DNA of 64,000 nt from an uncultured Gammaproteobacteria bacterium (GTDB lineage: Bacteria > Patescibacteriota > Patescibacteriia > Magasanikbacterales > JBBTQS01). Positions 11 to 53,285 of this stretch are shown in pieces (position 1 is the first letter of the stretch; each line of letters starts with the position of its first letter). The stretch is taken from positions 246,359 through 310,358 of the forward strand of contig OZ246400.1 of assembly GCA_965230935.1 (NCBI GenBank), read 5' to 3'. A program made the translations under genes and the position numbers. Below the pieces are notes generated by a model. The model was not told the origin of the DNA and did not search any database. It worked only from the letters and a program-made list of their open reading frames with translations.

Positions 11-925
11 ATGACTTCAATTATTTTTTTTGGAACAGATGATTTTGCTGCGACGATCCTCTCACAACTCCTCCAAGAATCCTCAGTTACTATTGCTGCT
101 GTCGTTACCAAACCAGATCGTAAACAAGGACGCGGCAGACGACTCCAAAAACCACCTGTTGCAGCCATGATTCCTGATGGCATCGATCTACTTCAACCGG
201 AAAAGCTCAACTTAGAATTTTTAAATACTCTTCGTGCTTATCAAGCGGATCTATTCGTTGTGGTTGCCTATGGTAAACTTCTTCCTAAAGAACTGCTTGA
301 TATCCCGCCAATGAAAACTTGGAATATTCATCCATCGCTTCTCCCTCAATATCGCGGTCCATCCCCTATTGCTTCAGCAATTCTTGCTGGAGATCAATAT
401 ACCGGAACCACAATAATGGAGCTGGACGAAGAAATGGACCATGGGCCAATATTCACCCAACAAAAAATAGCCATTGAGTCGAAAGATACAACAAATACAT
501 TACGCCAAAAACTAGCGACTGTTTCCGGTGATTTACTCCTGAACACTCTTGATCAAGTGATCAATCAAGGCCTCAAACCAACAGAGCAAGATCACGGTCA
601 AGCTACATACACTCACAAACATGGAACAGATGACTATGCCCTTGATTTTACCCAATCAGCTAAATCTGTTTTGCGCAAAATCCGTACTTTTTCTGGCGAA
701 GCATGGTTTATGTTGCCAAATGGCAAACGCTGCAAGGTTTTTGAAGCTAGAATTGTCAATAATTTTCCTGACAATTTACCAACTGGTCATTTGTATTGTC
801 AAAAACAGGGGTGCAGTATTATCTGTGATGAACAAGCAATAGAACTCGCATCTGTTCAGATCGAAGGCAAACAACGTATCGACGGAAAATCATTTGCAAA
901 CGGTATGCGTCACCAAAAAACGTAG
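11..925 (+). CDS. fmt: methionyl-tRNA formyltransferase
   Basis: 304 aa ORF; N-terminal formyltransferase fold motifs (FFGTDDFA, HPSLLPQYRG) and Fmt C-terminal domain. Confidence 0.9.
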   Translation: MTSIIFFGTDDFAATILSQLLQESSVTIAAVVTKPDRKQGRGRRLQKPPVAAMIPDGIDLLQPEKLNLEFLNTLRAYQADLFVVVAYGKLLPKELLDIPPMKTWNIHPSLLPQYRGPSPIASAILAGDQYTGTTIMELDEEMDHGPIFTQQKIAIESKDTTNTLRQKLATVSGDLLLNTLDQVINQGLKPTEQDHGQATYTHKHGTDDYALDFTQSAKSVLRKIRTFSGEAWFMLPNGKRCKVFEARIVNNFPDNLPTGHLYCQKQGCSIICDEQAIELASVQIEGKQRIDGKSFANGMRHQKT

Positions 926-953
926 TTTCATACTCTATCATATTTTTTTCATT

Positions 954-975
954 CCACTTTTCAGTGGTTTTTTAT
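954..975 (+). terminator. intrinsic terminator of fmt
   Basis: hairpin CCACT-tttc-AGTGG followed by TTTTTTAT directly after the fmt stop. Confidence 0.6.
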
Positions 976-976
976 A

Positions 977-1005
977 TTGACAAAAGGCTAATTTTTAGGT
1001 ATAGT
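977..1005 (+). promoter_or_regulatory. sigma70-like promoter of GC-rich cassette A
   Basis: TTGACA (977-982), 17-nt spacer, TATAGT (1000-1005). Confidence 0.6.
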
Positions 1006-1049
1006 ATGTGGTCGCTTTCAAAGACGTGCACAGCTTTCGTGCATCAGTT

Positions 1050-1074
1050 CCTGGGGAGTGTAACATTCCCCAGG
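1050..1074 (+). promoter_or_regulatory. 5' leader stem-loop of cassette A
   Basis: perfect 8-bp inverted repeat CCTGGGGA-N9-TCCCCAGG between promoter and RBS. Confidence 0.5.
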
Positions 1075-1111
1075 GATTGGTGTATGAGAGAATCCTTGGA
1101 AGGGGGAAGTA

Positions 1112-1516
1112 ATGAAACAGCGTCAGGAAAACATCGACAGATTGCTCGCCCGAGTGGTGCATGGGATCTACCCGCACCTCCTCATTGTATGGGTCGAGCC
1201 GAGCGAGCTCCTGGCGCACTCTCGTGCCGGATCGTTTCGCCTAGAAAGCAAAGTGCCGCTGCAATATCGCGCACTGACCGACCGCCGTACGTACGCGCTG
1301 CATTTTGCTCGACACTACCAGGTATGTGAGCAAAACACATGGCGCCCGATCAAGCTCTTTGTGACGTGCGAGGCGCGGATCAAAGATGTGAGCGATGCGA
1401 TGGCCAAACATTTGTTGCACTTGGCACAAACGGCCGCACGCACACAGCCCCGGGGCCGCCTACTGCATTTGCACGATGCCGAGCGGCGCTTTCGTCGAAT
1501 GAACACCCAACACTAA
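1112..1516 (+). CDS. GC-rich orphan protein A (134 aa, unknown function)
   Basis: ORF with strong SD GGAAGGGGGAAG 4 nt upstream of ATG; high-GC codon usage (CTG/GCC/CGC) unlike flanking genes; own promoter and terminator. Confidence 0.7.
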   Translation: MKQRQENIDRLLARVVHGIYPHLLIVWVEPSELLAHSRAGSFRLESKVPLQYRALTDRRTYALHFARHYQVCEQNTWRPIKLFVTCEARIKDVSDAMAKHLLHLAQTAARTQPRGRLLHLHDAERRFRRMNTQH

Positions 1517-1533
1517 CCAACAGAAACAACGAA

Positions 1534-1558
1534 CATCTCAGCCTAGCTGAGATGTTTT
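1534..1558 (+). terminator. intrinsic terminator of cassette A
   Basis: 9-bp stem CATCTCAGC-cta-GCTGAGATG followed by TTTT. Confidence 0.75.
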
Positions 1559-1566
1559 CAATTATC

Positions 1567-1595
1567 TTGACAAATACTATTCTTTGACCTATACT
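1567..1595 (+). promoter_or_regulatory. sigma70-like promoter of cassette B
   Basis: TTGACA (1567-1572), 17-nt spacer, TATACT (1590-1595). Confidence 0.6.
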
Positions 1596-1602
1596 CATCT
1601 CT

Positions 1603-1651
1603 TATATGCAGTGACCAGGAGACGAACCATCGCCTCCTTCTACTGCATATA
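1603..1651 (+). promoter_or_regulatory. structured 5' leader of cassette B
   Basis: 10-bp stem TATATGCAGT...ACTGCATATA enclosing a nested AGGAG...CTCCT stem; a second small CCGC/GCGG stem lies before the SD. Confidence 0.5.
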
Positions 1652-1684
1652 GACCCGCACCGCGGGAAAGGAGCACATCGGCCT

Positions 1685-3109
1685 GTGGCTGATACTCAAC
1701 AGGGTCCCCGCGCTAACGCGCACAACCAGCAGGGCTTTACCCTGCTGCAGGCGATCGCCTATCTGATCGCTCCCGCAGGTGTACTCGCACTGGTGGCAGC
1801 AGGAACAGTGTGGATTGACCTGCCGTTTGTCAGCGAACGCTTCCAGTTCAGGAGCAAGTGGGAGAACTGGATGTTGTCTCAAGTGGTGTTCGGCATGACG
1901 ATGTTGGCGGGCTTTGCACGAGTGCGGCTCCGCCGATACTCAATGATCCACATGGCGATCCTCGGACTGATCATCGTTGTGGGCGTGCGCATCGGCATAA
2001 CCGACATCATGAAGTCCGCGTACTTCGCGCCGCTGGACAATCGTGTCGATTGGCACACCCAACACATCTTCCAGGAAGAAATCAAGGCGCGGTATAGCTT
2101 TGGTTCGGCTGAGCGATCAAAGAGGAACTACCCCCGCTTCACCGAGGAGGAGTGCACGTTCGAGCAGGCCAAGATCGATGACCCGCGGTATTACGAGAGC
2201 GCCTACCGCGAACTTGAGCAGGAGCGACAAGGATACGTGGGCGCAATCAAGGAGCTTCAGGAGGATGTGCAGCGTGGCAAACAGTTGCGCCTTCACCTAC
2301 GGTTGGAATCTTTAGTCTTCCCTACCGTTGCCATCGTTCGCTTGGATCCTAACGCCCGCGTGAGCGCGCGTTACCTGGACAATGGCGTGTGCAGACTCCG
2401 TACAGATCAAGAGGTTGATAAGGTGGGGTTCAGCATGAACCTTGACCCAAAGGACGGCTGGGGTTTTCTGCTTGTGCGTATCGTACGTGCGCTGAACAAC
2501 ACACAGAGTCGAACCGGGATCAGGTGTAACATCAACCAGCTACAAGACCCGATTCGAGAAGTTGGTTGTTTCACCGCAATGACTGAGTACCTTGTCTATG
2601 GTGTGCTCGCAAGAAGGATCCTTCCCTATACCGGCCGGGAATTCGGGAACATAAAAGACTCCCTCAACTGGGACTTCCTGATCCAGGCCTGGAAGGCTGC
2701 TGATGTGATCGCCCAGGATGAGGGGCTGCTATGGGCCGTCATGACAAGCTTTGTGCAGCACCAACTCCCTCGGCTTGATGACCTGGGTCAGGGTCGACTG
2801 GCAGGCTTGCTGTGGGTTCTCTGGCACAAGAGCCACCGAAACCTGGCTGCACTTGCCACAAACACGTTCCTTGAGGCTCGCATACCCACCTCGGTTGAGG
2901 CTTGGTTCATGCGCCGATGGGCCGATGCCGGTCGGCAGGCTCCTGGGATGCGGCAGCTCTGGATCTACCGCTACTGGTTGCTTCGGGCCGGCGAGACGTT
3001 CAAGGTTCCGCAAAAGCTGCTGACGCAGTGGAACCAGGAGCTCAAGCCGGCGATCGGAGGCGCGACCACGCTCAAGCTCAAGGGGCTCTACCTGAAGGAC
3101 CTCAAGTAG
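1685..3109 (+). CDS. GC-rich membrane-anchored protein B (474 aa); paralog of protein C
   Basis: GTG start preceded by AAGGAG with slightly long spacing, so start uncertain; 3 predicted N-terminal TM helices; C-terminal EAWFMRRWADAG...LWIYRYW...GGATTLKLKGLY block shared with ORF 3368-4678. Confidence 0.7.
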   Translation: MADTQQGPRANAHNQQGFTLLQAIAYLIAPAGVLALVAAGTVWIDLPFVSERFQFRSKWENWMLSQVVFGMTMLAGFARVRLRRYSMIHMAILGLIIVVGVRIGITDIMKSAYFAPLDNRVDWHTQHIFQEEIKARYSFGSAERSKRNYPRFTEEECTFEQAKIDDPRYYESAYRELEQERQGYVGAIKELQEDVQRGKQLRLHLRLESLVFPTVAIVRLDPNARVSARYLDNGVCRLRTDQEVDKVGFSMNLDPKDGWGFLLVRIVRALNNTQSRTGIRCNINQLQDPIREVGCFTAMTEYLVYGVLARRILPYTGREFGNIKDSLNWDFLIQAWKAADVIAQDEGLLWAVMTSFVQHQLPRLDDLGQGRLAGLLWVLWHKSHRNLAALATNTFLEARIPTSVEAWFMRRWADAGRQAPGMRQLWIYRYWLLRAGETFKVPQKLLTQWNQELKPAIGGATTLKLKGLYLKDLK

Positions 3110-3145
3110 CGCTCGGAGGCTCAACAACACACAAACAACTACACG

Positions 3146-3169
3146 ATCTAGGATTTCCACATCCTAGAT
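3146..3169 (+). terminator. terminator-like hairpin after cassette B
   Basis: perfect 9-bp inverted repeat ATCTAGGAT-ttccac-ATCCTAGAT; weak T tract. Confidence 0.45.
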
Positions 3170-3199
3170 TCTGTAATTTAGCTAATTTTAGACTCATAC

Positions 3200-3228
3200 T
3201 TGACAAATTCCTCTAATTTTGGTATTGT
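3200..3228 (+). promoter_or_regulatory. sigma70-like promoter of cassette C
   Basis: TTGACA (3200-3205), 17-nt spacer, TATTGT (3223-3228); leader of about 135 nt follows. Confidence 0.55.
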
Positions 3229-3367
3229 TAGTCGTCCAAACCTGGACTCAGGATGCGAGTGTAGCAGCTCGTTTCTGTGACAGTTTTGGAACCTGGGCAC
3301 AAGAAGTGTTCATTGTTTTCCATGAGGGAATTGACAATTAGCTCAGACAGCCACGAGGAGGCAACAC

Positions 3368-4678
3368 ATGAGCGATACGACGAGCGGGGATACCCCCGAG
3401 ATGGTTACCATCCCGTGCACCGAGTGCCGTGCGGACGTGAACATCAGCAAAGAGAGAGCAGCACTGGCCGGCATGATCGGTTGCACCGACTGCGGCAAGG
3501 AGTTCATGTACTCCGGGCCCAGCAGCGAAACCGAGGACTCGGGCCCGCTGGAGCTCCCAAGCCAGGCGAAGCGGCTCAACCCGTTCGTCATCATCGGCCT
3601 CTCGACCATCCTGCTGGTGTCTCTGCTCATCTGGCACCAGTCCACGTCGGGCGACGCCGATCAGGAGGCCGAGAGTACGGCCCCGAGCGCGGTGACGGAG
3701 GACACCCCTGCGGCGGCCGAAGAGGACGAGTCGAATACCTGCACCGACGAGGATGGGTGTGGGGGTGGGAAGCGCTGCTTGAACGGCAAGTGCCAGCTGA
3801 TGGTCAACCACGACTGGGAGTCGGTCAAGGCCATCAACGGCCAAATCGCCAACCCGGTTGCCACCGCGACAGCGTCGACGCCGGTCTTCCCCAAGGACAG
3901 CGAAGACGTTCCGGAGTTCGACGGTTCGGCGACCATGTTGTTGGCCGCGGCGCTCTCCAAGCTCAACCACGACGACATGTGGCCGTATTGGTTGCTCAAG
4001 TGGGGCACGTTCGAGAAGGCCGATGATGCCGATGAGGACGCAGATGGGGTTTACATCTCCCTCGTCGATTCGGTTCTCACCGTCAAGTGGCTTCCGGAGA
4101 TGAGCAGTCCGTCGTGGAAGGGGCCGAGCGACACGCCCGAGTTCACCTACGGCGATCACCTGGTCATCGCGCTTCGGAAGATCGCCGAGGACGAGGAGCA
4201 GTTGGCCGCGCTCATGCCGTGGGCGCTGGGCTACGCCAAGGTTCACCTGCGGCCGCAGTTCTACCCCATGTACCAGGAGTGGCTGCGTCGGCTCTGGCAA
4301 GCGTCCAACACCAACCTCGCCCTGGTCAAGCATCAGGTGCAGAACGGCATCGGCGACCCGGAGGATGACGAGTACACCCGTCCGGGCGACGTGCTGTACG
4401 ACAACGACCTGAAGTTGGAGGGGTGGTTCATGCGCCGCTGGAGCAACGCCGGGGGCGGCAAGGCAGGGAGCGATCGGATCCTGCTGTACCGCTACTGGAT
4501 CGTCAAGGTCATGCAGATGCTCGAGGGCGGCTGCAGTCCGGCCGGGGACACACCCGCGTGTTCCGAGGAGTTGCTGGGATGGGCCAGCGCCGTTCAAGGT
4601 TCGTTCCAGAACGGTGAGGGCGCCACCCTGAAGCACAAGGGGACCTACTTCAGCCAGATCGACACGTTCTGGCCCTGA
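3368..4678 (+). CDS. GC-rich protein C (436 aa): N-terminal Cys4 zinc ribbon, single TM, acidic linker, C-terminal domain paralogous to protein B
   Basis: SD GAGGAGG 6 nt upstream of ATG; CTEC...CTDCG zinc-ribbon-like motif then TM helix FVIIGLSTILLVSLLIW; C-terminal EGWFMRRWSNAG...LLYRYW...GEGATLKHKGTY. Confidence 0.75.
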   Translation: MSDTTSGDTPEMVTIPCTECRADVNISKERAALAGMIGCTDCGKEFMYSGPSSETEDSGPLELPSQAKRLNPFVIIGLSTILLVSLLIWHQSTSGDADQEAESTAPSAVTEDTPAAAEEDESNTCTDEDGCGGGKRCLNGKCQLMVNHDWESVKAINGQIANPVATATASTPVFPKDSEDVPEFDGSATMLLAAALSKLNHDDMWPYWLLKWGTFEKADDADEDADGVYISLVDSVLTVKWLPEMSSPSWKGPSDTPEFTYGDHLVIALRKIAEDEEQLAALMPWALGYAKVHLRPQFYPMYQEWLRRLWQASNTNLALVKHQVQNGIGDPEDDEYTRPGDVLYDNDLKLEGWFMRRWSNAGGGKAGSDRILLYRYWIVKVMQMLEGGCSPAGDTPACSEELLGWASAVQGSFQNGEGATLKHKGTYFSQIDTFWP

Positions 4679-4730
4679 GGTCGGCTCCGACGGCTCCTGA
4701 GCACACACCACAACACAACAACTACTTGCA

Positions 4731-4759
4731 GGCCCGCAGCGCGTACAGCGATGCGGGCC
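4731..4759 (+). terminator. intrinsic terminator of cassette C
   Basis: 8-bp stem GGCCCGCA-N13-TGCGGGCC followed by a T-rich tract. Confidence 0.65.
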
Positions 4760-4794
4760 TCAGTAATTTTAGCTAGTAATCGCCTACCATTCTT

Positions 4795-5487
4795 CTACTC
4801 CAACTTATGCTTTTTTTGCACAATTGATTTGGCAGCCTGATAATCCTGAACTTTTTTACTCCAAGGAAACATCTTATACCAAAACTCTGGAAGCCAACTA
4901 CTCATTGTTCCGGAAGAAATAATCTGAAAAAGAATTTCTGGGACCATCACACCATATTTGCTTTGCTCTGCCATACTAAGCCACACATCCCAATCTTGAA
5001 ATCGCTTCAATTCCGGATCAAATCCACAAAAATCTTTTGCACGAATTAACGCACTGGTGTGAATGTAATTGTTCTGTTTTAACTTTTCTAGATCAAATGG
5101 TTGCGGTGAAAATGTTTTCCATCCAAGTTTGAACCCACCATAGCTATACGACGCTTTTGGATTAGCCACCAAAGCAGTATGGAGTTTTTCAAACATTCTA
5201 GAGTTAAGGACAAGGTCAGCATCACAAAACAATACATACTCCCCTGTTGTCCTACTAAATGCAACATTGCGTGCTGTTGGTGCACCTTGATTCTCTTGCG
5301 TAATATAGTGAGTAGCAGCAAAGTCCTGCGCGACTGATTTGATATCTTCAGTGCTTCCATCATTCACAACAATCACCTCAATCGGCTGGTATGTCTGTGC
5401 ACATATAGACTCAAGTGTTCGACGGAGTGCACCCGACCGATTAAATACCGGCACAACAACGCTAATGAGATTAGGAATCATACTCAA
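4795..5487 (-). CDS. family 2 glycosyltransferase
   Basis: VVVPVFNRSG...VIVVNDGSTED GT2 signature; DAD motif. Confidence 0.8.
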   Translation of the reverse strand: MSMIPNLISVVVPVFNRSGALRRTLESICAQTYQPIEVIVVNDGSTEDIKSVAQDFAATHYITQENQGAPTARNVAFSRTTGEYVLFCDADLVLNSRMFEKLHTALVANPKASYSYGGFKLGWKTFSPQPFDLEKLKQNNYIHTSALIRAKDFCGFDPELKRFQDWDVWLSMAEQSKYGVMVPEILFQIISSGTMSSWLPEFWYKMFPWSKKVQDYQAAKSIVQKKHKLE

Positions 5488-6625
5488 ATATCTGTGTTTT
5501 TTCCTGTTCCCAATTCTGCCATGAAAATTCTTGTGTATACCGTGCCTTTGCTTGAGCTCCCATCTGCTCTCGAGTTGATTGATCCCCGATTAAGTAAATC
5601 ATTGCGTGCGCAAGTGATGGTATGTCCCCTGCAGGAACTACCACACCAGTTTTTCCTTGCAAAACTGCTTCTGGTGCTCCACCGGCATCACTTGCAATAC
5701 TTGACTTGCCATATGATGCAGCCTCAATATAGCTCATACCAAACCCTTCGACATCAGTTCCTGATTGCTGGGTAGGCATAATATATACATCAGCAATTTG
5801 ATACCAAACTGCTTTTTCACTAGCTGAAACAGCACCAATGAACCGTACATTATTTTGTAATTGGTATTGTTGCATCAAAGCCTGTAAGCGTGCAGATTCT
5901 GGCCCTTCTCCAATGACCGCATAGGCAACATTAGGGTGAGTCTTAACCACTTGTGCAAGCGCGATAAGCGTCTGATCAATCCCCTTTCGCGCAACCAATC
6001 GTGCGACAGTAATCATGAGTATTTTCCCTTCAAGTGCATACTGCGAACGCAATGACTCTTGTGCTGCCAAATGAGACTCCTGCGGTGCATCGACATGGGG
6101 ATACCACAACATAATATCTTGTCGATTTGGCACGATTTGCTGAACTTGTGCAGCAGTAAACTTACTATTTGCAACAAGTGTTTTGGCGTTACGTAAAATG
6201 TTTATAAGACGTTTTTTCGCAAATCGTTTTTTCTTAGCCAACAAAATATCCATTCCATGAAAATAAATCCGATACGGAGTACCTAGCTTCTTTTGAATCC
6301 AATAGCAAATAGTCCCAATAGGAAGCACATGCGAGCAATGAATCTCATCAAATTGATATTGTTTTTGTAAACGCCATACGCGGATAAAGAGAAAAAACCA
6401 TCGTGGCCAAAGCCACCGACTAAAAAATCTGGTGTAGAGCATGGTGGGTGGATGCTCATTAACTTTCCAAATGTCTTGCGCACTTTTGTCGCTTTTCTTA
6501 AGATTCTGATCAAGTAAAATCGTAAGCTTGTCAGATGGATATCGACGGTACAGCCCAGAAAGATATTGGGCAACTCCTCCAAGACGTGGAGGAAAGTCAT
6601 GAGTAATTAATAGAATATTCTTCAT
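5471..6625 (-). CDS. family 4 (GT1-type) glycosyltransferase
   Basis: 384 aa; C-terminal EGFGMSYIEAASYGKSSIASDAGG retaining-GT motif. Confidence 0.8.
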   Translation of the reverse strand: MKNILLITHDFPPRLGGVAQYLSGLYRRYPSDKLTILLDQNLKKSDKSAQDIWKVNEHPPTMLYTRFFSRWLWPRWFFLFIRVWRLQKQYQFDEIHCSHVLPIGTICYWIQKKLGTPYRIYFHGMDILLAKKKRFAKKRLINILRNAKTLVANSKFTAAQVQQIVPNRQDIMLWYPHVDAPQESHLAAQESLRSQYALEGKILMITVARLVARKGIDQTLIALAQVVKTHPNVAYAVIGEGPESARLQALMQQYQLQNNVRFIGAVSASEKAVWYQIADVYIMPTQQSGTDVEGFGMSYIEAASYGKSSIASDAGGAPEAVLQGKTGVVVPAGDIPSLAHAMIYLIGDQSTREQMGAQAKARYTQEFSWQNWEQEKTQIFEYDS

Positions 6626-8052
6626 ATGGATGAACGTCGAAACAAATGAGTAAGCTCCTGTGTTGTAGTAACTCGCAAAAAGAGTGCGGCACTAATATAT
6701 ACTACAGAACCAATTAAAATCTCGATCACAAGCGGCACTCGCTGTTGGACAGCAAAAACCACTATTACCATAATAGCGGTTGCCCCAATAATCCGAAAGG
6801 TTTGTGAAAATAATTGTTTCCACGGGATAACAATAATCTTACGGATCATCACTAATCCTACGCCAAACAACAGCGCAAAGCCAAAGGTTGCTGCACCTGC
6901 TGCAGCCAATGCTCCATATTTGGGAATGAGTGCAATGTTAAGCCCAGCGTTTACCACCATAACCAAACCCATAATTGCGGTTTGTACATGTTGTTTGTTG
7001 CATGCATTGAGCACGGAACCCACTGGAAAACTTGCAAAAGAAAAAATAATGCTGAGTATTAATACTTGCAATGGCACTACTGATGCATGATATTGCGCAC
7101 CATAAAAAACAGAGATGATGTCGCTGCTGGTCACTAAAATACCCAATGAGATTGGAAATGCAATGAGCAGAAGGTATCGTGTTGAGTTCACAAATAGTGA
7201 AGCGAGTTTTGCTTTGTTACTTACAAAATACTCACTCATCTTTGGATATACTGACGCAATTAGCGCCATAGGGATAAACTGAAATGCAAATGCGATTTTA
7301 AACGGTACACTATAAATCCCTGCTTCATGTTCACCCACCAGTCGCTCAAGGAGAACACTATCAAATGATGAAGACACTCGGGCAAACACTCCAGCCAATG
7401 CAAATGGAATTGCCATAATAATAATCTTTTTCACTAAGGAGCCGTCCCACGTAAATGAGAACCGAATATCATGTTTTCGTGACAGCATGGTGGCAATATA
7501 TACCACGTTAATTGCACTTGAAATTGCAAATACCCAAATTAATGAAACAAGTGGCAATCCAAAATGAACAGCATACAGTCCTAAAATCATGGTTAATACT
7601 TGACTCCCAAACATACCAATAGCTTCCCAGCGCACATCGTGGAGCGAACGAAATACGGCATAATAGGACAAGTGGATTGAATCTAAAATCATGACAATAC
7701 CTGCTACCAAGATCAACTCACGGAGTTCGGCAGAATACCCGAGCAATATAGTCGTTCCCCAAATTATTCCATAGGCCAAAATTCCGGTAAGAACTTTGGT
7801 ACTCATGATAGTACGTAAATACACACTCGCCTGACTTGATCGCTTTGCTACTTCTCGAGTAAGTACTGGCGACATACCCACGTCGATTAAGATTGAAAAC
7901 ATGGTAGTAAATGACAGTGCAACAAAGTATTTACCGATCTGTGAAACATCAAGCAAGTTTGCCAAAAGCGTAAAATACAAAAAAGAAACGACTTTCTGTC
8001 CTACAGATGCCGTTGTCATAAACGCCGTATTTTTGGCAATCGAGCGAGCCAT
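6622..8052 (-). CDS. polysaccharide biosynthesis protein / Wzx-like flippase (MOP superfamily)
   Basis: about 12 TM helices; start placed at MARSIAKNTAF (the ORF-track start at 8199 runs into the next cassette). Confidence 0.7.
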   Translation of the reverse strand: MARSIAKNTAFMTTASVGQKVVSFLYFTLLANLLDVSQIGKYFVALSFTTMFSILIDVGMSPVLTREVAKRSSQASVYLRTIMSTKVLTGILAYGIIWGTTILLGYSAELRELILVAGIVMILDSIHLSYYAVFRSLHDVRWEAIGMFGSQVLTMILGLYAVHFGLPLVSLIWVFAISSAINVVYIATMLSRKHDIRFSFTWDGSLVKKIIIMAIPFALAGVFARVSSSFDSVLLERLVGEHEAGIYSVPFKIAFAFQFIPMALIASVYPKMSEYFVSNKAKLASLFVNSTRYLLLIAFPISLGILVTSSDIISVFYGAQYHASVVPLQVLILSIIFSFASFPVGSVLNACNKQHVQTAIMGLVMVVNAGLNIALIPKYGALAAAGAATFGFALLFGVGLVMIRKIIVIPWKQLFSQTFRIIGATAIMVIVVFAVQQRVPLVIEILIGSVVYISAALFLRVTTTQELTHLFRRSSI

Positions 8053-8164
8053 AGCAATACTCTTATTGTACGAAAATGAATAAGAAATAGCAATAAAAAG
8101 CAAAATCGTCCAGAGTTCTCTGCACGAAGACGCGTTGTGTATTTTGCTGTGACCCGTGGGCTGC

Positions 8165-8596
8165 TCATGGCGCAGCGACAGCTGTTGTGTGAACCTCAAG
8201 ACTCCAGCTCCGCCAGCTCAAGCCAAGACTTGTCAACGTCTCGACCTCCGAGGGTAGATACTGGAACCACTGACACTTCCGGTCGCACTTGACCACACTC
8301 AACAATAGCTGGTATCCACGAACTGTGGCACGCATGTCGCTCATGAGCGGCACGCGAACCCCGAAGTCCGCCTGACACCCGGCCAACGCAGGCAGGCCGG
8401 CATGACCTTCATCGACCAGCATCATGTCGTCGTCCCCCACAACGCCGGCGCCAAAGAGGGCGACGACGAGACTCCATGCTTGCGATCGATCGATCCCGCT
8501 CCCAAAGACTACTCCCCACTTTCCGGCGTGGCGAGATTGGTGCACAAAGGCGCCTTGGGTCATGTCCCCAACAGCGGCCTCTCCTCGTTGCGGCAT
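8165..8596 (-). CDS. GC-rich orphan protein D (143 aa, unknown function)
   Basis: ATG preceded by AGGAGG (8603-8608 on minus strand); GC-rich codons; sits between Wzx gene and the S9 operon terminator. Confidence 0.65.
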   Translation of the reverse strand: MPQRGEAAVGDMTQGAFVHQSRHAGKWGVVFGSGIDRSQAWSLVVALFGAGVVGDDDMMLVDEGHAGLPALAGCQADFGVRVPLMSDMRATVRGYQLLLSVVKCDRKCQWFQYLPSEVETLTSLGLSWRSWSLEVHTTAVAAP

Positions 8597-8633
8597 ACAT
8601 ACCTCCTACCGCGGTTGTTGAACATATATTCAG

Positions 8634-8662
8634 CATACTCAGATTACTACACCTTTGTCAAC
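8634..8662 (-). promoter_or_regulatory. promoter of cassette D
   Basis: TTGACA at 8662-8657 on the minus strand, immediately after the S9 terminator; -10 hexamer ambiguous (GAGTAT / TATGCT). Confidence 0.45.
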
Positions 8663-8685
8663 AAAAAGGCCGCCTATCGGCGGCC
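8663..8685 (-). terminator. intrinsic terminator of the ribosomal protein operon (after rpsI)
   Basis: GGCCGCC-gata-GGCGGCC hairpin followed by TTTTT on the minus strand. Confidence 0.75.
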
Positions 8686-8710
8686 ATACTATGATTGACT
8701 GAGATGTGCT

Positions 8711-9154
8711 TTAACGTTTACTCCATTGATGTGCACGACGTGCTTTGTGTCGTCCAGGCTTCTTACGTTCTTTAACTCGTGCATCACGAGAAAGAAGTCC
8801 AAGTGATTTAAGCGACTTACGAAGCTCGGCATCAAGGGCTACCAATGCACGTGCAATACCAAGTTGCACCGCTTCCGATTGACCGCGCTTTCCTCCACCG
8901 ACTACTTTAACGGTTACATCAACACCGTCCTCTCGACCGACCGCTTTCAGCGGTGCCATAATAGTCTCTTGCATAGCGACTGTTGGAAAGTATGCTTTCC
9001 AATCTTGATCATTAATGGTAAGTGCTCCTTTTCCAGCAGGAAATAGTCGGATGCGTGCTGATGCACTTTTTCGACGCCCTACTGCTGGGATATAGTCACC
9101 ATTTTTCTCAGGGGCAGCCGTTGTCTTTGTTTCTGAAACGGAAATATTTTCCAT
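8711..9154 (-). CDS. rpsI: 30S ribosomal protein S9
   Basis: C-terminal GGGKRGQSEA...KARRAHQWSKR. Confidence 0.95.
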   Translation of the reverse strand: MENISVSETKTTAAPEKNGDYIPAVGRRKSASARIRLFPAGKGALTINDQDWKAYFPTVAMQETIMAPLKAVGREDGVDVTVKVVGGGKRGQSEAVQLGIARALVALDAELRKSLKSLGLLSRDARVKERKKPGRHKARRAHQWSKR

Positions 9155-9155
9155 A

Positions 9156-9515
9156 TTAAACGGTAATCTTCAAATTCTTAAGTCGTGGTGCGCGGAGTCG
9201 ATTCTTTGGAAGCATTTTTTCTACTGCCATACGCACTACTGCTGTTGGATCTTTTTCCATCATCTTCTTCAAATTGGTTTGTCGCAATCCACCAGGATAC
9301 ATCGTATGTCGGTAATAAATCTTTCCTTCTAATTTACGTTGATCAAAACGCAATTTTGCAGCATTGGTCACTTCAACCTTATCTCCACATAGCTGATGAG
9401 GAGCAAATGTTGGTTTGTGTTTACCTAACAACAAGGTTGCGACTTGGGTAGCTAAACGCCCAACTGATTTGCCAGTTGCATCAATTACATGAGTTGAAAC
9501 TTCGTTTTGCGTCAT
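9156..9515 (-). CDS. rplM: 50S ribosomal protein L13
   Basis: 119 aa, ATGKSVGRLATQVATLL L13 signature. Confidence 0.95.
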   Translation of the reverse strand: MTQNEVSTHVIDATGKSVGRLATQVATLLLGKHKPTFAPHQLCGDKVEVTNAAKLRFDQRKLEGKIYYRHTMYPGGLRQTNLKKMMEKDPTAVVRMAVEKMLPKNRLRAPRLKNLKITV

Positions 9516-9517
9516 AT

Positions 9518-9868
9518 TTAGGTCAATTCAATTACTGCCATTGCCGCTCCATCTCCAGCACGGGGAGGCGTCTTGGTAATACGAGTATACCCACCGGCAC
9601 GATCTGCATACCGAGGAGCGATCTCTTGTGTCAATTTACGCATTGCGCCTTTGGTATACACAGTTTTCAAAATCTGTCGCTTTCCATGCAAAGTATTTTT
9701 CTTTGCTTGGGTGATAAGCTTTTCAACCAATGGCCGAACCGCTTTTGCTTTGGCATGAGTGGTCTGAATCTTTTCACGCAAAATAATCGCTTCAACAAGT
9801 GAACGCAACAATGCCTGGCGGGAAGACGCCTTTCGATCAAGAGTTACTTTTGCGTTTTTATGTCTCAT
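9518..9868 (-). CDS. rplQ: 50S ribosomal protein L17
   Basis: 116 aa, MRHKNAKVTLDRKASSRQALLRSL L17 N-terminus. Confidence 0.95.
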   Translation of the reverse strand: MRHKNAKVTLDRKASSRQALLRSLVEAIILREKIQTTHAKAKAVRPLVEKLITQAKKNTLHGKRQILKTVYTKGAMRKLTQEIAPRYADRAGGYTRITKTPPRAGDGAAMAVIELT

Positions 9869-9871
9869 ACA

Positions 9872-10648
9872 CTATGATACTTGTTCCTCAATGACTCCCT
9901 CCTCCACTGCTTCTGCTACTGGCTCTTCTGCACCTTCATCTGTCAGCTCAGCAGCTACTGATCCACCATCACTGATAACTTGTAAATGACTGGACAAAAT
10001 AGCAGTTGACTGCTCCATTGCCTCTTTCGGTGTAAGCGTGCCATCAGTTTGGATCTTCAACGTCAACTTTTCGTAGTTGGTAATATCACCCACACGGGTG
10101 TTTTCAACGCTATATCCCATGTCAACAACTGGAGTAAAAATGGAATCAATCGCAATCATGCCAAGCTCAAGATTTTCTTCTTCGCGTTGTTCGACGGTAA
10201 CATATCCACGACCGCGCTTCACTACAATATCCATTTCAAGCTCAGTACCAGCATCCGTAATCTCTGCCAAATGGAGATCAGAATTCACCACTTCAACATC
10301 AGCGTTTGCTTCTATGTCTGCAGCAGTCACTGCTCCGGCGCCTTTTTTCTTCAGATGAAGTTTTACTTCACCATCAGCATGTACGCGAACACGTAATTTT
10401 TTTAAGTTAAGCAATACCTGCACTACATCCTCAGCAACACCATCAATACCATCAAATTCATGAGAAACACCTTTAATCTTTACTGCGGTTGCAGCAGCAC
10501 CTGGCAATGATGAAAGTAACACACGGCGATACATATTCCCGAGCGTGGTTCCATATCCGTGATAACACGGAGTAATAATAACCTCAGCGGTGTTATCGGC
10601 ATCAAGGTCAGTATAGGTAACTGAATTTGGTAAAAGTAATTCCTCCAT
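9872..10648 (-). CDS. rpoA: DNA-directed RNA polymerase alpha subunit, lacking the C-terminal domain
   Basis: alpha NTD motifs (ITPCYHGYGTTLGNMYRRVLLSSLPG); only 258 aa, ends in an acidic tail, no alpha-CTD. Confidence 0.85.
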   Translation of the reverse strand: MEELLLPNSVTYTDLDADNTAEVIITPCYHGYGTTLGNMYRRVLLSSLPGAAATAVKIKGVSHEFDGIDGVAEDVVQVLLNLKKLRVRVHADGEVKLHLKKKGAGAVTAADIEANADVEVVNSDLHLAEITDAGTELEMDIVVKRGRGYVTVEQREEENLELGMIAIDSIFTPVVDMGYSVENTRVGDITNYEKLTLKIQTDGTLTPKEAMEQSTAILSSHLQVISDGGSVAAELTDEGAEEPVAEAVEEGVIEEQVS

Positions 10649-10653
10649 ATGAT

Positions 10654-11277
10654 TTAGCGTGAATAAAACTCAATAATTCGTTTAGTATCAAATGCGGTGT
10701 CAAAATCATTGCTTCCCGGGATAGCAACCACTTTCCCTTCAAGTTTACTTGCATCAAGGCTCAACCATGACGGTGGGTCAAACTTCTCTAGTTTTTTTGC
10801 AAGCGGAGCAAAGACTTTAGGATCTTTAACTGTGATACTATCGCCAATTTTGACTCGATACGACGGGATATTTACCTTCTTTCCATTTACACGAATATGT
10901 GCATGAGATACCCGCTGACGCGCTTCAAAACGACTGGCAGCCAGTCCAAGTCGATATACAACATTGTCCAAGCGCAATTCAAGCAGCTGACGTAATACCA
11001 CTTCGGTGTCCCCTTCTTTACGGTTTGCACTTTGCACGTATCGCAAAAATTGGCCTTCAGTCAAGCCGTATGTGCGCTTTGCTTTTTGTTTTTCGCGAAG
11101 CTGCTTACCAAAGTCAGAAAGTCGTCCACGTCGACGCTTGTTTCCGTGCATTCCTGGTGCATATGGCCGACGAGAAACCGGACATTTTGTAGTATAACAC
11201 TTCTCTCCTTTGAGGAAGAGCTTTACTCCTTCGCGGCGACACATGCCACATTTTCCTTTTTGATACTGTACTGGCAT
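10654..11277 (-). CDS. rpsD: 30S ribosomal protein S4
   Basis: start placed at MPVQYQKGKCGMCRREG (typical S4 zinc-ribbon N-terminus); the ORF-track extension to 11340 would overlap rpsK. Confidence 0.9.
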   Translation of the reverse strand: MPVQYQKGKCGMCRREGVKLFLKGEKCYTTKCPVSRRPYAPGMHGNKRRRGRLSDFGKQLREKQKAKRTYGLTEGQFLRYVQSANRKEGDTEVVLRQLLELRLDNVVYRLGLAASRFEARQRVSHAHIRVNGKKVNIPSYRVKIGDSITVKDPKVFAPLAKKLEKFDPPSWLSLDASKLEGKVVAIPGSNDFDTAFDTKRIIEFYSR

Positions 11278-11281
11278 AAAA

Positions 11282-11680
11282 TTAGACTCGACGTCGCTTA
11301 CGAGCTCGACATCCATTATGGGGAACCGGTGTAACATCACGCATAGAAACTACGGCAATATTATTAGCATTGAGCGCACGAATTGCTCCCTCACGCCCTT
11401 GACCAATTCCTTTTACAAAAACATTTACTTCTTTAAGTCCATACACTTCAAGCTTTTCTGCAACATCTTTTACAATCATGCTTGCAGCATATGGCGTTGC
11501 TTTTTTCGGACCTTTAAACCCCACTTGTCCTGCGCTGCTCCATGCCAACACATTCCCTTGTTCGTCAGTAACGGAGACAATGGTATTGTTATAGGTCGCC
11601 TGAATATAGGCATTCCCACGGGAAACCGAGGTAATAACTTTCTTTTTTTTCTTTTTCGCAACTTGCTTTTTAGCAGCCAT
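11282..11680 (-). CDS. rpsK: 30S ribosomal protein S11
   Basis: 132 aa, S11 core with Lys-rich N-terminus. Confidence 0.95.
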   Translation of the reverse strand: MAAKKQVAKKKKKKVITSVSRGNAYIQATYNNTIVSVTDEQGNVLAWSSAGQVGFKGPKKATPYAASMIVKDVAEKLEVYGLKEVNVFVKGIGQGREGAIRALNANNIAVVSMRDVTPVPHNGCRARKRRRV

Positions 11681-11689
11681 AAATAATCA

Positions 11690-12076
11690 TTAGGTCTTTT
11701 GCAATGTTCGGCGACCGGATCCCATAGTAGATCGCTTGTTACCACGAACCGTACGAGAATTCACCTTAGTGCGTTGTCCGCGAACAGGTAATCGCTTAAG
11801 ATGGCGAGAGCCGCGATAACTTTTAATGTCTTTGAGTCGCTTAACGTTACTACTAAGCAATCGGCGTAAATCACCTTCAGTTCGATATTCCTTTTCCACA
11901 ACACGACGCAAACGGTCTTCTTCCTCTTGGGTAAGGTCTTTTACACGGGTATTGGAATCAATATTCGCTTTTTTCAAAATCGCTTGCGCCAAACTTAATC
12001 CAATACCAAATACATATGTGAGAGCTACCTCAACACGCTTATCTTTTGGAATGGTTACTCCTGAGATTCGAGCCAT
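11690..12076 (-). CDS. rpsM: 30S ribosomal protein S13
   Basis: MARISGVTIPKDKRVEVALTYVFGIG. Confidence 0.95.
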   Translation of the reverse strand: MARISGVTIPKDKRVEVALTYVFGIGLSLAQAILKKANIDSNTRVKDLTQEEEDRLRRVVEKEYRTEGDLRRLLSSNVKRLKDIKSYRGSRHLKRLPVRGQRTKVNSRTVRGNKRSTMGSGRRTLQKT

Positions 12077-12079
12077 AGC

Positions 12080-12193
12080 TTATCCTTGACGTTGTTTATG
12101 TTTAGGATTTTTACAAAATACAACCACACGGCGCTTACGGCGTGTTGTCTTACAATCTTTACACATCTTTTTAACCGATGCTCGTACTTTCAT
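12080..12193 (-). CDS. rpmJ: 50S ribosomal protein L36
   Basis: 37 aa [37 protein letters not shown] read by hand from the minus strand; below the ORF-track length cut-off. Confidence 0.9.
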
Positions 12194-12259
12194 GTTTGTG
12201 GTTTTTGCAGTAAAAACGCCGATCACACTGTGATCGGAAAACGTCAGATGAGTACCGCT

Positions 12260-12475
12260 TCAAAATCGGTAGGTAATACGCCCTTTGGTTAAATCATAGG
12301 GCGTCATTTCTACTTTTACACGGTCACCTGCCGTAAGGCGTATACGAAATCTCCGCATCTTTCCTGAAAGATGAGCGATGATTTCATGCGCATTGTCAAG
12401 TTGGACGCGAAAGGTCCCACCAGGTAGTGATTCTTCGATCACTCCTTTAAATTCAACGACGTCTTTTTTTGTCAT
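12260..12475 (-). CDS. infA: translation initiation factor IF-1
   Basis: 71 aa S1-like fold, [19 protein letters not shown]. Confidence 0.95.
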
Positions 12476-12489
12476 AATTGACTGCCAAT

Positions 12490-12518
12490 AGTATAGAGAA
12501 TACGCTCAATCCTGTCAA
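12490..12518 (-). promoter_or_regulatory. sigma70-like promoter upstream of infA
   Basis: minus strand TTGACA-17 nt-TATACT about 15 nt upstream of the infA ATG. Confidence 0.55.
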
Positions 12519-12599
12519 CATTTTTGCCTATACTTTGTGAACCTTATTTTTGGCCTAATTTAGCTAATTAATTTTTTACTTAAACTATACACAACCAAT

Positions 12600-14279: not shown

Positions 14280-14280
14280 G

Positions 14281-14973
14281 TTAGTGTCGTTTACGAATAG
14301 CAATAATATCTTTACACATCTGTATGGTTTGTGGAACAAGACGGATGGTCGATTGACTATTGCGCACAAGCCGTACCGGCAACTCAACGACCTTTATATT
14401 CTCTTGATGCGCACGAGTAAGCAGCTCAACATCAAAGGCAAATCCTGGTGTATGTAAGTCAGTAAAAAGTTGTTGAGCAACATCTTTAGTAAAAAACTTT
14501 ATGCCACACTGTGAATCTTTCCACGGAATACCGGTTATCTTACGTGTCAATACCGAAAATATTTTACTTGCCAGCGAACGTGTGGCACCGTATCCAATCG
14601 TCTTGTGTGCCTGAGGATGTGTTCGCGAACCAATGACAATGTGTGTTCCTGTGTTATCGCGTAATTCATCATACGCAACCCGAATAACCTGCAAATCGTA
14701 AGGTAAATCAATGTCAGTAAACCCCACCACTGATCCACGTGCCTGGAGTATTCCGGTTTGCACAGCTCGACCTTTCCCTTGGTTATTTTTATGTCGCAAT
14801 ACGCGCACTGATGCTCCCCAATGCTCTTGTATTACAATCGGTGTGATACTCCCATCATCAACAATAATAATCTCATAGGCAATGCCAGCCTGATCCAGCC
14901 ATGAGGAAAGCTGCGATACTGAGGTATCGGCAATATCGGCACTTTCATATGCCGGAAGGATTATACTCAACAT
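14281..14973 (-). CDS. GT2 glycosyltransferase (polyprenol-phosphate sugar synthase-like)
   Basis: start placed at MLSIILPAYESADIA...IIIVDDGS; DID motif. Confidence 0.75.
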   Translation of the reverse strand: MLSIILPAYESADIADTSVSQLSSWLDQAGIAYEIIIVDDGSITPIVIQEHWGASVRVLRHKNNQGKGRAVQTGILQARGSVVGFTDIDLPYDLQVIRVAYDELRDNTGTHIVIGSRTHPQAHKTIGYGATRSLASKIFSVLTRKITGIPWKDSQCGIKFFTKDVAQQLFTDLHTPGFAFDVELLTRAHQENIKVVELPVRLVRNSQSTIRLVPQTIQMCKDIIAIRKRH

Positions 14974-14974
14974 A

Positions 14975-21371: not shown

Positions 21372-21434
21372 ATAGTAATCATTTTTACTATTTTATATGG
21401 TAGTAGTATATCAAATCTCTGATATATGAACAAA

Positions 21435-22037: not shown

Positions 22038-22039
22038 AT

Positions 22040-24091: not shown

Positions 24092-24093
24092 AA

Positions 24094-31671: not shown

Positions 31672-31764
31672 AGTGGGTCGAAAACAGACCTATTTTAGCA
31701 CTAAGTCAAATAAACAACAAGCCCAACAATTTAGTCTTTTTGGCTAATTTTAGCTATCAAAGCC

Positions 31765-31793
31765 TTGACAAAAGGCCAAAAATGTGCTATGAT
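31765..31793 (+). promoter_or_regulatory. sigma70-like promoter of cassette E
   Basis: TTGACA (31765-31770), 17-nt spacer, TATGAT (31788-31793); preceded by a CTAATTTTAGCTA motif. Confidence 0.6.
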
Positions 31794-31839
31794 AGACACA
31801 CGTTTTTTGACATTCTCACCTTTTGTCCCGGGAGGACCC

Positions 31840-32130: not shown

Positions 32131-32172
32131 TCACCACACAGCGCGGGCAGCGCTAAACCCACCTGCCCACCG

Positions 32173-32214
32173 AAAGCCCCGACGCGGATTTCTAACACGC
32201 GACGGGGCTTTTCG
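32173..32214 (+). terminator. intrinsic terminator of cassette E
   Basis: AAAGCCCCGACGCG...CGCGACGGGGCTTT stem followed by TTTCG. Confidence 0.65.
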
Positions 32215-32239
32215 AATACAAAAATTGTGAGGTGATTAT

Positions 32240-53256: not shown

Positions 53257-53285
53257 TTGACAGAAACTCAATTACTTACTACAAT
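53257..53285 (+). promoter_or_regulatory. sigma70-like promoter of cassette G
   Basis: TTGACA (53257-53262), 17-nt spacer, TACAAT (53280-53285). Confidence 0.6.

Follow-up and report, generated by a model that had tools for sequence, protein, structure and literature searches.

The 64-kb stretch of DNA analysed here (the window) contains eight GC-rich cassettes, each with a single gene, that together occupy about 10% of its length. Three of them, termed A, B, and C, are arranged in tandem as an island flanked by fmt and glycosyltransferase genes (Table 1). The cassettes share a plan consisting of a TTGACA-N17-TAnnnT promoter, a 5′ untranslated region (UTR), an open reading frame (ORF) with high GC content at the third codon position (GC3), and a hairpin terminator, with promoters and terminators assigned from consensus scans and not from expression data. 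Chromosomal core genes flank the cassettes: fmt, glycosyltransferases, rpsI, and secA in the window, and secY or nusG in relatives. The flanks in the window also include an operon for ribosomal proteins, which are encoded at 8711-12076.

Table 1. Features of the A–B–C island, numbered from the first letter of the window.
Feature	Position	Strand	Description
Cassette A promoter	977..1005	+	TTGACA-17-TATAGT; 11/12 matches; perfect -35 hexamer; best promoter-like site in 900-8800
Cassette A ORF	1112..1516	+	134 aa; orphan without transmembrane (TM) helix; GC 0.575, GC3 0.667 (host GC3 ~0.3)
Cassette A terminator hairpin	1532..1556	+	11-bp perfect inverted repeat, then TTTTC
Cassette B promoter	1567..1595	+	TTGACA-17-TATACT; 11/12 matches
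Cassette B 5′ UTR	1596..1684	+	89 nt; 55% GC; Shine-Dalgarno AAGGAG; no Rfam match at E ≤ 1
Gene B	1685..3109	+	474 aa; GTG start; GC3 0.705 in frame; homologues match translation; 2-3 N-terminal TM helices and family ectodomain
B membrane anchor	1736..1999	+	Hydrophobic aa 18-44, 63-78, 87-105 (hydropathy); AlphaFold2 (AF2) helices 20-44, 60-138
B membrane-proximal ectodomain subdomain	2150..2473	+	Family-wide columns CT..., LPxLP, C, W..L
B conserved C-terminal all-helical domain	2666..3106	+	aa ~328-474; pLDDT 83-97; profile matches; three alignments
B 3′ UTR	3122..3170	+	18-nt A/C-only tract 3122-3139, then terminator hairpin 3145-3170
Cassette C promoter	3200..3228	+	TTGACA-17-TATTGT; TG before -10 hexamer
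Cassette C 5′ UTR	3229..3367	+	139 nt; 49% GC; Shine-Dalgarno GAGGAGG; no Rfam match at E ≤ 1
Antisense ORF, mis-call	3338..4711	-	457 aa; product P0032 in public record (NCBI, ENA)
Gene C	3368..4678	+	436 aa; ATG start; GC3 0.872 in frame; matches other-genome members, E down to 2.5e-22
C cytoplasmic CxxC-x18-CxxC	3416..3493	+	Zinc-ribbon-like; CTEC-x18-CTDC, aa 17-42
C TM helix	3584..3634	+	aa 73-89 (hydropathy); AF2 helix 72-98, pLDDT 76-82
C cysteine knot	3740..3793	+	C-x5-C-x5-C-x4-C, CTDEDGCGGGKRCLNGKC; aa 125-142
C conserved C-terminal all-helical domain	4148..4675	+	aa ~261-436; pLDDT 85-98; BLASTP, alignments, profile
C 3′ UTR	4702..4760	+	21-nt A/C-only tract 4702-4722, then GC-rich terminator hairpin 4730-4760

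Composition and content of the cassettes

Cassette ORFs in the window have a GC content of 0.57–0.67 and a GC3 of 0.66–0.97, compared with approximately 0.41 and 0.33 for the host, and display strong three-base periodicity; the GC-rich ORFs of the island are separated by AT-rich promoters. This composition is foreign to the surrounding genome, and several candidate processes may underlie the GC bias. A donor genome was not found. All cassette cargos are orphans, and the cassette A ORF, without a match in Pfam, PHROGs, NCBIfam, or PADLOC, is a singleton in the protein collection. Since the cargos of A, G, and H lack TM helices, the cassettes do not encode surface proteins exclusively. Neither the island (blastn against plasmids) nor H (tblastn against phages and plasmids) produced a match, and viral contigs scanned with the cassette proteins F, G, and H contained no relatives.

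Outside the coding regions, Rfam recognised no RNA family in the UTRs, either at gathering thresholds over the whole window or at E ≤ 1 between positions 900 and 4900. Target-site duplications or shared attC-like elements were not detected at cassette boundaries. The sequence GCTAATTTT occurs near three cassette promoters with marginal enrichment (4 sites against 0.93 expected, a count of 4 being reached in 3 of 100 shuffles). B, C, and G have conspicuous A/C-only tracts downstream of their stop codons; as such runs are frequent genome-wide (60 observed, 16 in shuffles), we make no claim that they mark cassettes specifically. The cassette A hairpin is palindromic, and the terminator scan lists the same hairpin on the - strand.

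Both B and C are genuine coding genes of the + strand, and several cassettes are misread in the public annotation. Public gene calls start B at an internal ATG (position 1943), yielding a 388-aa product (P0001), and do not contain the exact C protein; exact-protein look-ups of B and C are empty because these calls differ from the ORFs described here, a discrepancy we recognise as mis-annotation. In the place of C, its antisense ORF is recorded. We rejected the latter as a gene, since its GC content peaks at codon position 1 (0.862) as the mirror image of the GC3 of C and homologues at the protein level favour the + strand. Public gene calls lack cassettes E, F, and H altogether.

B and C share an ectodomain

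The earlier note had proposed that B and C share a C-terminal WFMRRW...YRYW...TLKxKG block with weaker matches upstream. BLASTP bears this out with a single significant segment of 83 aa (B 404-473, C 350-431; 33% identity, 47 bits, E = 6e-10) that includes the WFMRRW, YRYW, and ATLK.KG.Y motifs. MAFFT lengthens the match upstream to about 145–170 aa, pairing IAQDEGLL with IAEDEEQL and LWHKSHRNLAA with LWQASNTNLAL. Because the corresponding motif W..FW.AS..n..L is conserved throughout the family alignments, the weaker matches are real. The homology is, however, not limited to the C-terminus but spans the whole ectodomain, which in both proteins presents a CTxE cysteine, a P-rich turn, a second cysteine, and a W..L helix. 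The N-termini differ as described, according to hydropathy, AF2 models, and coordinates.

The two genes had also been described as tandem paralogs. Their kinship within one family holds, but they are not recent tandem duplicates: in a comparison with members from other genomes, B and C matched each other at about 1e-7, and each was closer to those members (C against an L005 member, E = 2.5e-22; C against an L011 member, E = 1.5e-20 over 337 aa).

In B, whose AF2 model has a mean pLDDT of 74, an RVRLRRY loop joins the second and third hydrophobic segments, and relatives with two TM helices (P0006, P0014, P0020) align to the membrane anchor. The membrane-proximal subdomain comprises the CTFE cysteine (aa 157), a helical hairpin, an LVFPTV turn, a further cysteine (aa 236), and a DGWGFLL helix. 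It is followed by the C-terminal domain with the motifs IAQDE, LW.KS..NLA, EAWFMRRW, YRYW, and TLKLKGLY. In C, the first cysteine of the knot aligns with the family CTxE cysteine, and the knot spacing recurs in a lipoprotein ORF at another locus (L007, 13176-16394: CYYNSDCSEGQKCNKGVC).

A family with interchangeable anchors

A profile of the shared block retrieved 27 further metagenomic proteins at E ≤ 1e-3, 10 of them at E ≤ 1e-10, which places the block far beyond chance. Detection of these relatives required a full HMMER scan, word-indexed searches being insufficient: queries with C, B, and a 29-sequence alignment returned only the truncated record of B and the already-known P0024. A scan of JGI metagenomes with the domain pattern found no relatives, and a scan of genome representatives found one locus only, in a metagenome-assembled genome labelled Gammaproteobacteria, with neighbouring genes that resemble those of monoderms or of the Candidate Phyla Radiation (CPR). 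Homologues come from separate datasets (JGI, ENA, NCBI, and Logan) and show the same cassette anatomy; B, C, and every relative with readable context (six other loci) are single-gene cassettes. The family is conserved at the protein level across at least seven low-GC genomes, and its members' ORFs have a GC3 of 0.55–0.90 in genomes of about 40–48% GC with CPR-like core genes. Viral contigs scanned with the domain profile contained no relatives, and tblastn of C against phage records gave no match.

Members are attached to the membrane by a lipobox, a signal-anchor, two or three TM helices, or a cytoplasmic tail with one TM helix, a range of anchors which argues that the conserved part is extracytoplasmic. 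A regular-expression scan with the pattern [LVI][ASTVI][GAS]C, which is not a dedicated predictor, placed a plausible lipobox at positions 10–21 of P0003, P0008, P0012, P0018, P0019, P0023, and P0025, and none in B or C. The C-terminal ~145 aa form a confidently predicted all-helical domain (AF2). Its invariant residues cluster in a Trp/Arg-rich, amphipathic helix-loop-helix, EGWF[LM]RRW-x-AGRG-x2-G-x-D-x4-YRFW, in which RRW is invariant and W, G, and R nearly so. As the note had suspected of a novel domain, profile and fold searches against Pfam, NCBIfam, PHROGs, PADLOC, and PDB gave no significant match to a known family. Similarities to HD domains and the Hsp90 middle domain were dismissed as generic helical or sub-threshold. 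The literature held nothing relevant on the family motif strings or on GC-rich islands in Saccharibacteria/Patescibacteria.

Judged by sequence, B and C are members of a small family of extracytoplasmic, membrane-anchored proteins that has not been described before and has so far been found only in low-GC, reduced genomes with CPR/Patescibacteria-like core genes; gene content suggests that the carriers are affiliated with the CPR. The common architecture consists of an interchangeable N-terminal anchor, a variable and probably disulfide-braced helical/β-hairpin subdomain, and the conserved ~145-aa helical domain.

The cytoplasmic module of C

From the N-terminus, C is composed of the Cys4 motif, one TM helix, an acidic linker, the cysteine knot, and the family ectodomain, a topology the earlier note had likened to that of anti-sigma factors. 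ZAS membrane anti-sigma factors, such as RsrA, RslA, and ChrR, are zinc-binding proteins with which C shares a cytoplasmic Cys-rich N-terminus, one TM helix, and an extracytoplasmic domain. If C, and by extension the family, were a membrane anti-sigma factor or TM sensor, the ectodomain would control the cytoplasmic zinc module, a notion with which the CxxC-x18-CxxC motif and weak, sub-threshold zinc-ribbon matches (zf-HYPF, E = 0.014; LysW, E = 0.037) are compatible. Unlike ZAS proteins, however, C lacks the HxxxCxxC motif, and a Pfam scan at E ≤ 1 returned zf-HYPF, Dickkopf_N, and a TFIIS ribbon, all below the cut-off, and no anti-sigma domain. A zinc ribbon carries two zinc-binding CxxC knuckles on paired β-hairpins; for the Cys4 region, AF2 predicts short strands (residues 12–15 and 24–27) at a low pLDDT of 43–57. 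A sigma gene is not among the neighbours of C, which are cassettes A and B, fmt, and glycosyltransferases, and C carries a promoter and terminator of its own; the note, too, had recognised no partner. The Cys4 motif is not conserved in the family alignment. B lacks the cytoplasmic module, as do nearly all relatives, these being lipoproteins or signal-anchored proteins; three carry long, unrelated tails. The anti-sigma or sensor reading is largely refuted for the family and very improbable overall. The interpretation given in the note, of a modular, possibly signalling or surface-exposed family, is supported in part.

Possible roles and origins

In our best reading, B and C are proteins of the envelope or of host interaction that vary between strains and are encoded on accessory cassettes resembling morons. 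To the explanation as a whole, comprising autonomous cassettes and outward-displayed, ligand-binding accessory envelope proteins that are exchanged between genomes, we assign a probability of roughly 0.5. Each gene would be an autonomous expression unit placed between core genes, similar to a moron but chromosomal, and its product would be exposed on the outside of the cytoplasmic membrane. Proteins of the B/C type would be accessory and horizontally exchanged, as suggested by their composition, their recurrence beside different core genes, and the closer relationship of B and C to members from other genomes. The conserved distal domain may bind an envelope ligand, be it a polymer, lipid, or protein of the cell itself or of a host cell, with a role in an episymbiotic lifestyle and not in transmembrane signalling. 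Against this reading, the family is conserved in its distal domain and varies in its proximal part, and so does not look like a classical adhesin, in which the tip is usually what varies.

Several other explanations deserve consideration. Phage-exclusion or defence membrane proteins are typical cargo of moron-like units, and B and C could keep phages from adsorbing, or their DNA from entering, at the envelope. Units with their own promoter and terminator, foreign composition, membrane- or lipid-anchored products, and assemblies that tend to break in or near cassettes would fit this role, yet it is unlikely given that PADLOC and PHROGs yielded no match, phage records and viral contigs held no relatives, and the flanks are core and not prophage genes. 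That the proteins are effectors attacking or remodelling the host-cell membrane appears decidedly improbable. Trp/Arg-rich antimicrobial peptides insert into lipid bilayers; the conserved helices (WF[LM]RRW, YRFW) of the outward-facing ectodomain, with their invariant and nearly invariant residues in an amphipathic helix-loop-helix, would do the same. The motif lies, however, inside a helical bundle that is well packed and predicted with confidence, the searches found no toxin-like fold, and no adjacent immunity-like gene recurs across loci.

The cassettes might alternatively be recent, decaying neutral imports from an unsampled high-GC donor, with the similarity of B and C reflecting a shared donor family. 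GC3 values of up to 0.87–0.97 in a genome with a GC3 of ~0.33, the spread within the family, as expected for differing amelioration ages, and cargos that are all orphans are in line with this scenario. We nevertheless regard it as quite unlikely in view of intact ORFs with strong consensus promoters, Shine-Dalgarno sites, and terminators, of the protein-level conservation noted above, of the contexts read (7/7 are cassettes in low-GC genomes, 0 high-GC), and of the share of a reduced genome's window that the cassettes occupy. An artefact is scarcely credible, whether in the form of high-GC reads wrongly assembled into a low-GC contig or of chance ORFs in non-coding GC-rich DNA: two metagenome contigs do end within the island, and GC-rich DNA does give long ORFs on both strands, but overlapping contigs are 100% identical with both junctions spanned, AT-rich promoters alternate with ORFs of strong periodicity, homologues from unrelated datasets have the same anatomy, and Rfam returned no match. 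Possible, though rather doubtful, is that CPR-like bacteria possess a lineage-specific and hitherto unrecognised class of chromosomal "expression-ready" cassettes with dedicated upkeep, whose cargo of GC3-rich, mostly secreted or membrane orphans includes B and C. Compositional boundaries would then coincide with the transcript, from after the -10 element to the terminator, and the pool could be kept or replenished through import, either from a high-GC partner not yet sampled or from a mobile pool, perhaps with RNA-mediated capture; selection acting on synonymous sites is another candidate process. The low visibility of the cassettes in protein databases would result from host-trained gene callers choosing the wrong strand.

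To our knowledge, CPR/Patescibacteria depend on host cells, and almost nothing is known of the surface molecules that mediate contact. If B and C are accessory envelope proteins, the family, with its recurring ectodomain on exchangeable anchors and its apparently new helical domain, would offer a concrete experimental candidate. Standard gene callers mis-annotate the cassettes, and protein-database surveys of such lineages would therefore under-count the likeliest host-interaction genes. The cassette context may matter more than the protein family itself: about one-tenth of the window, in a genome of ~0.9 Mb, consists of autonomous foreign orphan cassettes with unusually strong promoters, which would not be expected of a streamlined genome and suggests that an accessory-gene pool is active.

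Comparison with known systems

Integron cassettes are usually promoterless, end in attC, and lie beside an intI gene. The units described here resemble them as single-ORF, mostly orphan elements in tandem (A-B-C), but a separate promoter and terminator accompany every unit, and the units are scattered over the genome and not collected in one array. No imperfect inverted repeat is shared at the cassette boundaries, where the hairpins have different sequences and resemble terminators, and the Pfam gene tables covering ~1,200-56,300 of the window list no integrase family.

The variable surface lipoproteins Vsp and Vlp of Mycoplasma exemplify multigene families found in parasitic bacteria that are wall-less or reduced. 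By analogy, the present family also belongs to a reduced, host-dependent bacterium with several paralogous anchored surface proteins that vary between strains; it differs in having no sequence or fold relationship to Vsp/Vlp and in being encoded on compositionally foreign units. Phase-variation repeats or invertible promoters were not seen at the cassettes.

Phage morons, a concept of Hendrix and colleagues, are reportedly independent promoter-ORF-terminator units between phage genes. The cassettes differ from them in being flanked by chromosomal core genes instead of lying in a phage or prophage, in lacking PHROGs or viral relatives, and in being GC-rich within an AT-richer genome, where they make up such a large part of the window. 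They resemble morons in consisting of one ORF equipped with a strong promoter and a terminator of its own, in their distinct composition, in often carrying membrane or lipoprotein cargo, and in their placement between otherwise contiguous genes.

Gene models and genomic setting

An earlier note had called two neighbouring ORFs, and both B (474 aa, GTG start) and C (436 aa) are present and are real genes (see table). The region 1050-4750 has a GC content of 58-65% against a window mean of 46%, and in the plus frames B has a GC3 of 0.70 and C one of 0.87, versus 0.28-0.38 for host genes. In the public gene calls, B is begun at an internal ATG to give 388 aa (P0001), and C is represented by an overlapping antisense ORF (P0032), whose GC maximum falls on codon position 1, mirroring C. 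The plus-strand ORFs of C and of cassettes E, F and H are missing from these calls, with a 109-aa antisense ORF called for F instead. Homologues from other genomes match the plus-strand translations, for C down to E=2.5e-22, which settles the plus strand as the coding strand. Gene calling trained on the low-GC host apparently breaks down on cassettes rich in GC3.

The remaining window carries unremarkable core genes of a small, CPR-like organism, with fmt, glycosyltransferases, a ribosomal operon, SecA/SecDF, Mur ligases and a VirD4-like ATPase; from this gene content, among other things, we infer a CPR host. A VirD4/TrwB-like coupling ATPase adjoins a DUF8128 protein and a 1129-aa orphan, in a type IV secretion-like cluster of the kind that episymbiotic CPR typically have. 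A chimeric origin of the island formed by B, C and the adjacent cassette A was rejected, as contigs assembled from independent runs match the window at 100% identity and together cross both junctions. Contigs from three assemblies of one population (L002, L003 and L001) end inside this island, at 1114, 1194 and 3830, and most other family members lie on very short contigs of 1.3-4 kb, which points to strain differences or a drop in coverage at cassettes.

A divergent family with a conserved ectodomain

The C-terminal block proposed to be common to B and C was recovered as a single significant BLASTP segment (B 404-473, C 350-431; 33% identity, E=6e-10) that includes WFMRRW, YRYW and TLK.KG.Y. 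The weaker upstream matches also held, with a global alignment reaching IAQDEGLL/IAEDEEQL and LWHKSHRNLAA/LWQASNTNLAL. In the DNA, all that is left is a 35-nt stretch around WFMRRW with 80% identity, so the similarity is old and of protein level. Word-indexed searches for family homologues returned nothing; scanning 1.84 billion representatives in full with HMMER and a B+C profile retrieved 27 further proteins (E<=1e-3). Ten of these were looked up and proved to be metagenome singleton clusters, nine unnamed and one a 'hypothetical protein'. Because the strand mis-calls carry over into protein databases, the family is certainly larger than counted here. The closest relatives of B and of C lie in other genomes and the two are more distant from each other, indicating divergent members in adjacent cassettes and no recent duplication. 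Locus L008 holds a second tandem pair of divergent members, followed by a third, GC-rich orphan ORF whose product has one TM and a tail rich in Pro and Gln.

The full-length family alignment extends homology over the entire ectodomain, beyond the C-terminus, in the order 'CTxE' cysteine, helical hairpin, LPxLP turn, second cysteine, W..L helix and C-terminal domain. The last carries AEDE..L, W..P, WL..FW.AS..n..L and YL, then K.EGWF[LM]RRWI.AGRG..G.D....YRFWM.R.A..L.MP.A..W and TLK.K.WYL..L; RR is invariant, and W, G, R, A, S and W nearly so. AlphaFold2 models from a 29-sequence alignment (overall pLDDT 74 for B, 66 for C) predict this domain as a bundle of about eight helices at pLDDT 85-98. 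Foldseek against PDB and BFVD gave no match at E<=1e-3, and Pfam, NCBIfam, PHROGs, PADLOC and a PDB sequence profile nothing significant; within these searches the domain is undescribed. The searchable literature makes no mention of the motif, the project or such islets.

N-terminal anchors are interchangeable across the family: seven members have a lipobox, about 12 a single signal-anchor, three or four 2-3 TM helices (B, P0006, P0014, P0020) and three a long cytoplasmic tail with one TM (C, P0004, P0016). Placing the conserved part outside the membrane is the only reading consistent with all anchor types, and B and C belong to a new family of membrane-anchored proteins, by this reading displayed on the outside. 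The suggestion that C resembles a membrane anti-sigma factor did not hold for any of the defining features tested (motif, domain hit, partner sigma and conservation of the cytoplasmic module); its Cys4 motif may be a lineage-specific zinc ribbon. The cysteine knot of C (3740-3793) has the spacing C-x5-C-x5-C-x4-C, which recurs identically in a lipoprotein ORF of locus L007, where another ORF has a related Cys-rich stretch; both are otherwise unrelated to the family. Cassette cargos may share the knot as a small extracellular module.

GC-rich single-gene cassettes

Cassettes A, B and C alike consist of a consensus promoter (TTGACA-17-TATAGT, TTGACA-17-TATACT and TTGACA-17-TATTGT, respectively), a 5'UTR of about 90-140 nt with a Shine-Dalgarno site, a GC-rich ORF and a hairpin terminator. 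Besides B and C the window has six such cassettes (A and D-H), which lie between core genes and carry orphan ORFs with GC3 of 0.66-0.97; the cassettes together occupy about 10% of the window, and their cargos are orphans without exception. Of the 11 perfect TTGACA-N16-18-TANNNT sites in the 64 kb, seven are cassette promoters. GC rises directly 3' of the -10 element and falls past the terminator (promoters 28-37%, 5'UTRs 43-55%, ORFs 57-67%, 3'UTRs 43-64%; most host intergenic regions 20-46%).

The window's three longest A/C-only runs (3122-3139, 4702-4722 and 58416-58437; 18-22 nt, ACAACA-like) lie between stop codon and terminator in B, C and G, and other cassettes have similar tracts. A/C-only stretches exceed expectation throughout the genome as well (60 observed versus 16 expected), so the tracts may not be specific to cassettes; they could conceivably serve as rut-like or RNA-binding sites. 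Copies of the motif GCTAATTTT(AG) lie within or immediately upstream of the A, C and E promoters (987-995, 3181-3189, 31743-31751) and just past the terminator of C, and TAATTTTAGCT at 4764 and 31745. Enrichment of GCTAATTTT(AG) is marginal (4 observed, 0.93 expected), and it might mark cassette boundaries.

Genes and cassettes in the window and at loci of family members in other genomes
Feature	Position	Strand	GC or GC3	Remark
Cassette A	977-1560	+		single-gene, orphan ORF
B	1685-3109	+	GC3 0.70	family gene
C	3368-4678	+	GC3 0.87	family gene
Antisense ORF	3338-4711	-		457 aa
Cassette D	8661-8100	-	GC-rich	anatomy as A-C
Secretion-like cluster	17982-25635	-		ATPase 22040-24091
Cassette E	31765-32215	+	GC-rich	anatomy as A-C; ORF 31840-32130, 2-TM peptide
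Cassette F	53257-54062	+	GC-rich	anatomy as A-C; ORF 53344-54021, lipoprotein
Cassette G	57738-58456	+	GC-rich	anatomy as A-C
Cassette H	60325-61305	+	GC-rich	anatomy as A-C; ORF 60414-61214
L005			GC3 0.55	second cassette nearby, GC3 0.76
L007, family gene (P0005)			GC3 0.56	within 10-kb block of GC-rich orphans
L007, orphan block	6400-16394		GC 50-64%	consecutive ORFs
L007, Cys-rich ORF	6421-7752
L007, lipoprotein ORF	13176-16394
L008, P0014 and P0006	309-1556, 1787-2998		GC3 0.63-0.64	tandem pair, own flanking signals each
L008, third ORF	3337-3972		GC3 0.83
L011			GC3 0.90
L012			about 58% GC, flanks 40%	adjoins nusG, gyrB, FtsW, L25/TL5, DUF3048 genes
L019			strongly GC-rich, by eye	directly 3' of apparent secY, by eye

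All family members with readable context sit in the same cassette type in hosts of roughly 40-48% GC, and in none of the contexts read does the family occur natively in a high-GC genome. In a control of 305 kb around fmt at 28 more distantly related loci, islets above median+10% GC were almost absent, which argues that the islets are lineage-specific and no general CPR property. The L012 contig (CAYGHM010000012.1) comes from a MAG labelled 'uncultured Gammaproteobacteria'; its label or binning may be wrong, since the contig looks monoderm- or CPR-like. Among the products of the L007 block around P0005 are coiled-coil proteins and one of 1073 aa or more, which has a signal peptide of lipoprotein type and whose ORF leaves the contig end; cassettes can apparently build up into large islands.

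Interpretation

The family rides on moron-like, autonomous cassettes of foreign composition that adjoin different core genes in different genomes. These would be horizontally exchanged accessory genes; neutral recent import would be an alternative. The conserved helical domain at the distal end, which contains an invariant Arg-Arg-Trp helix, could be an envelope-ligand binding module, and the family might act in host or envelope interaction in an episymbiont. Roles in defence or exclusion, or as a membrane-active effector, remain open rivals to such an interaction role. The closest concept is the phage moron, from which the units described here differ in being chromosomal, numerous and GC-rich.
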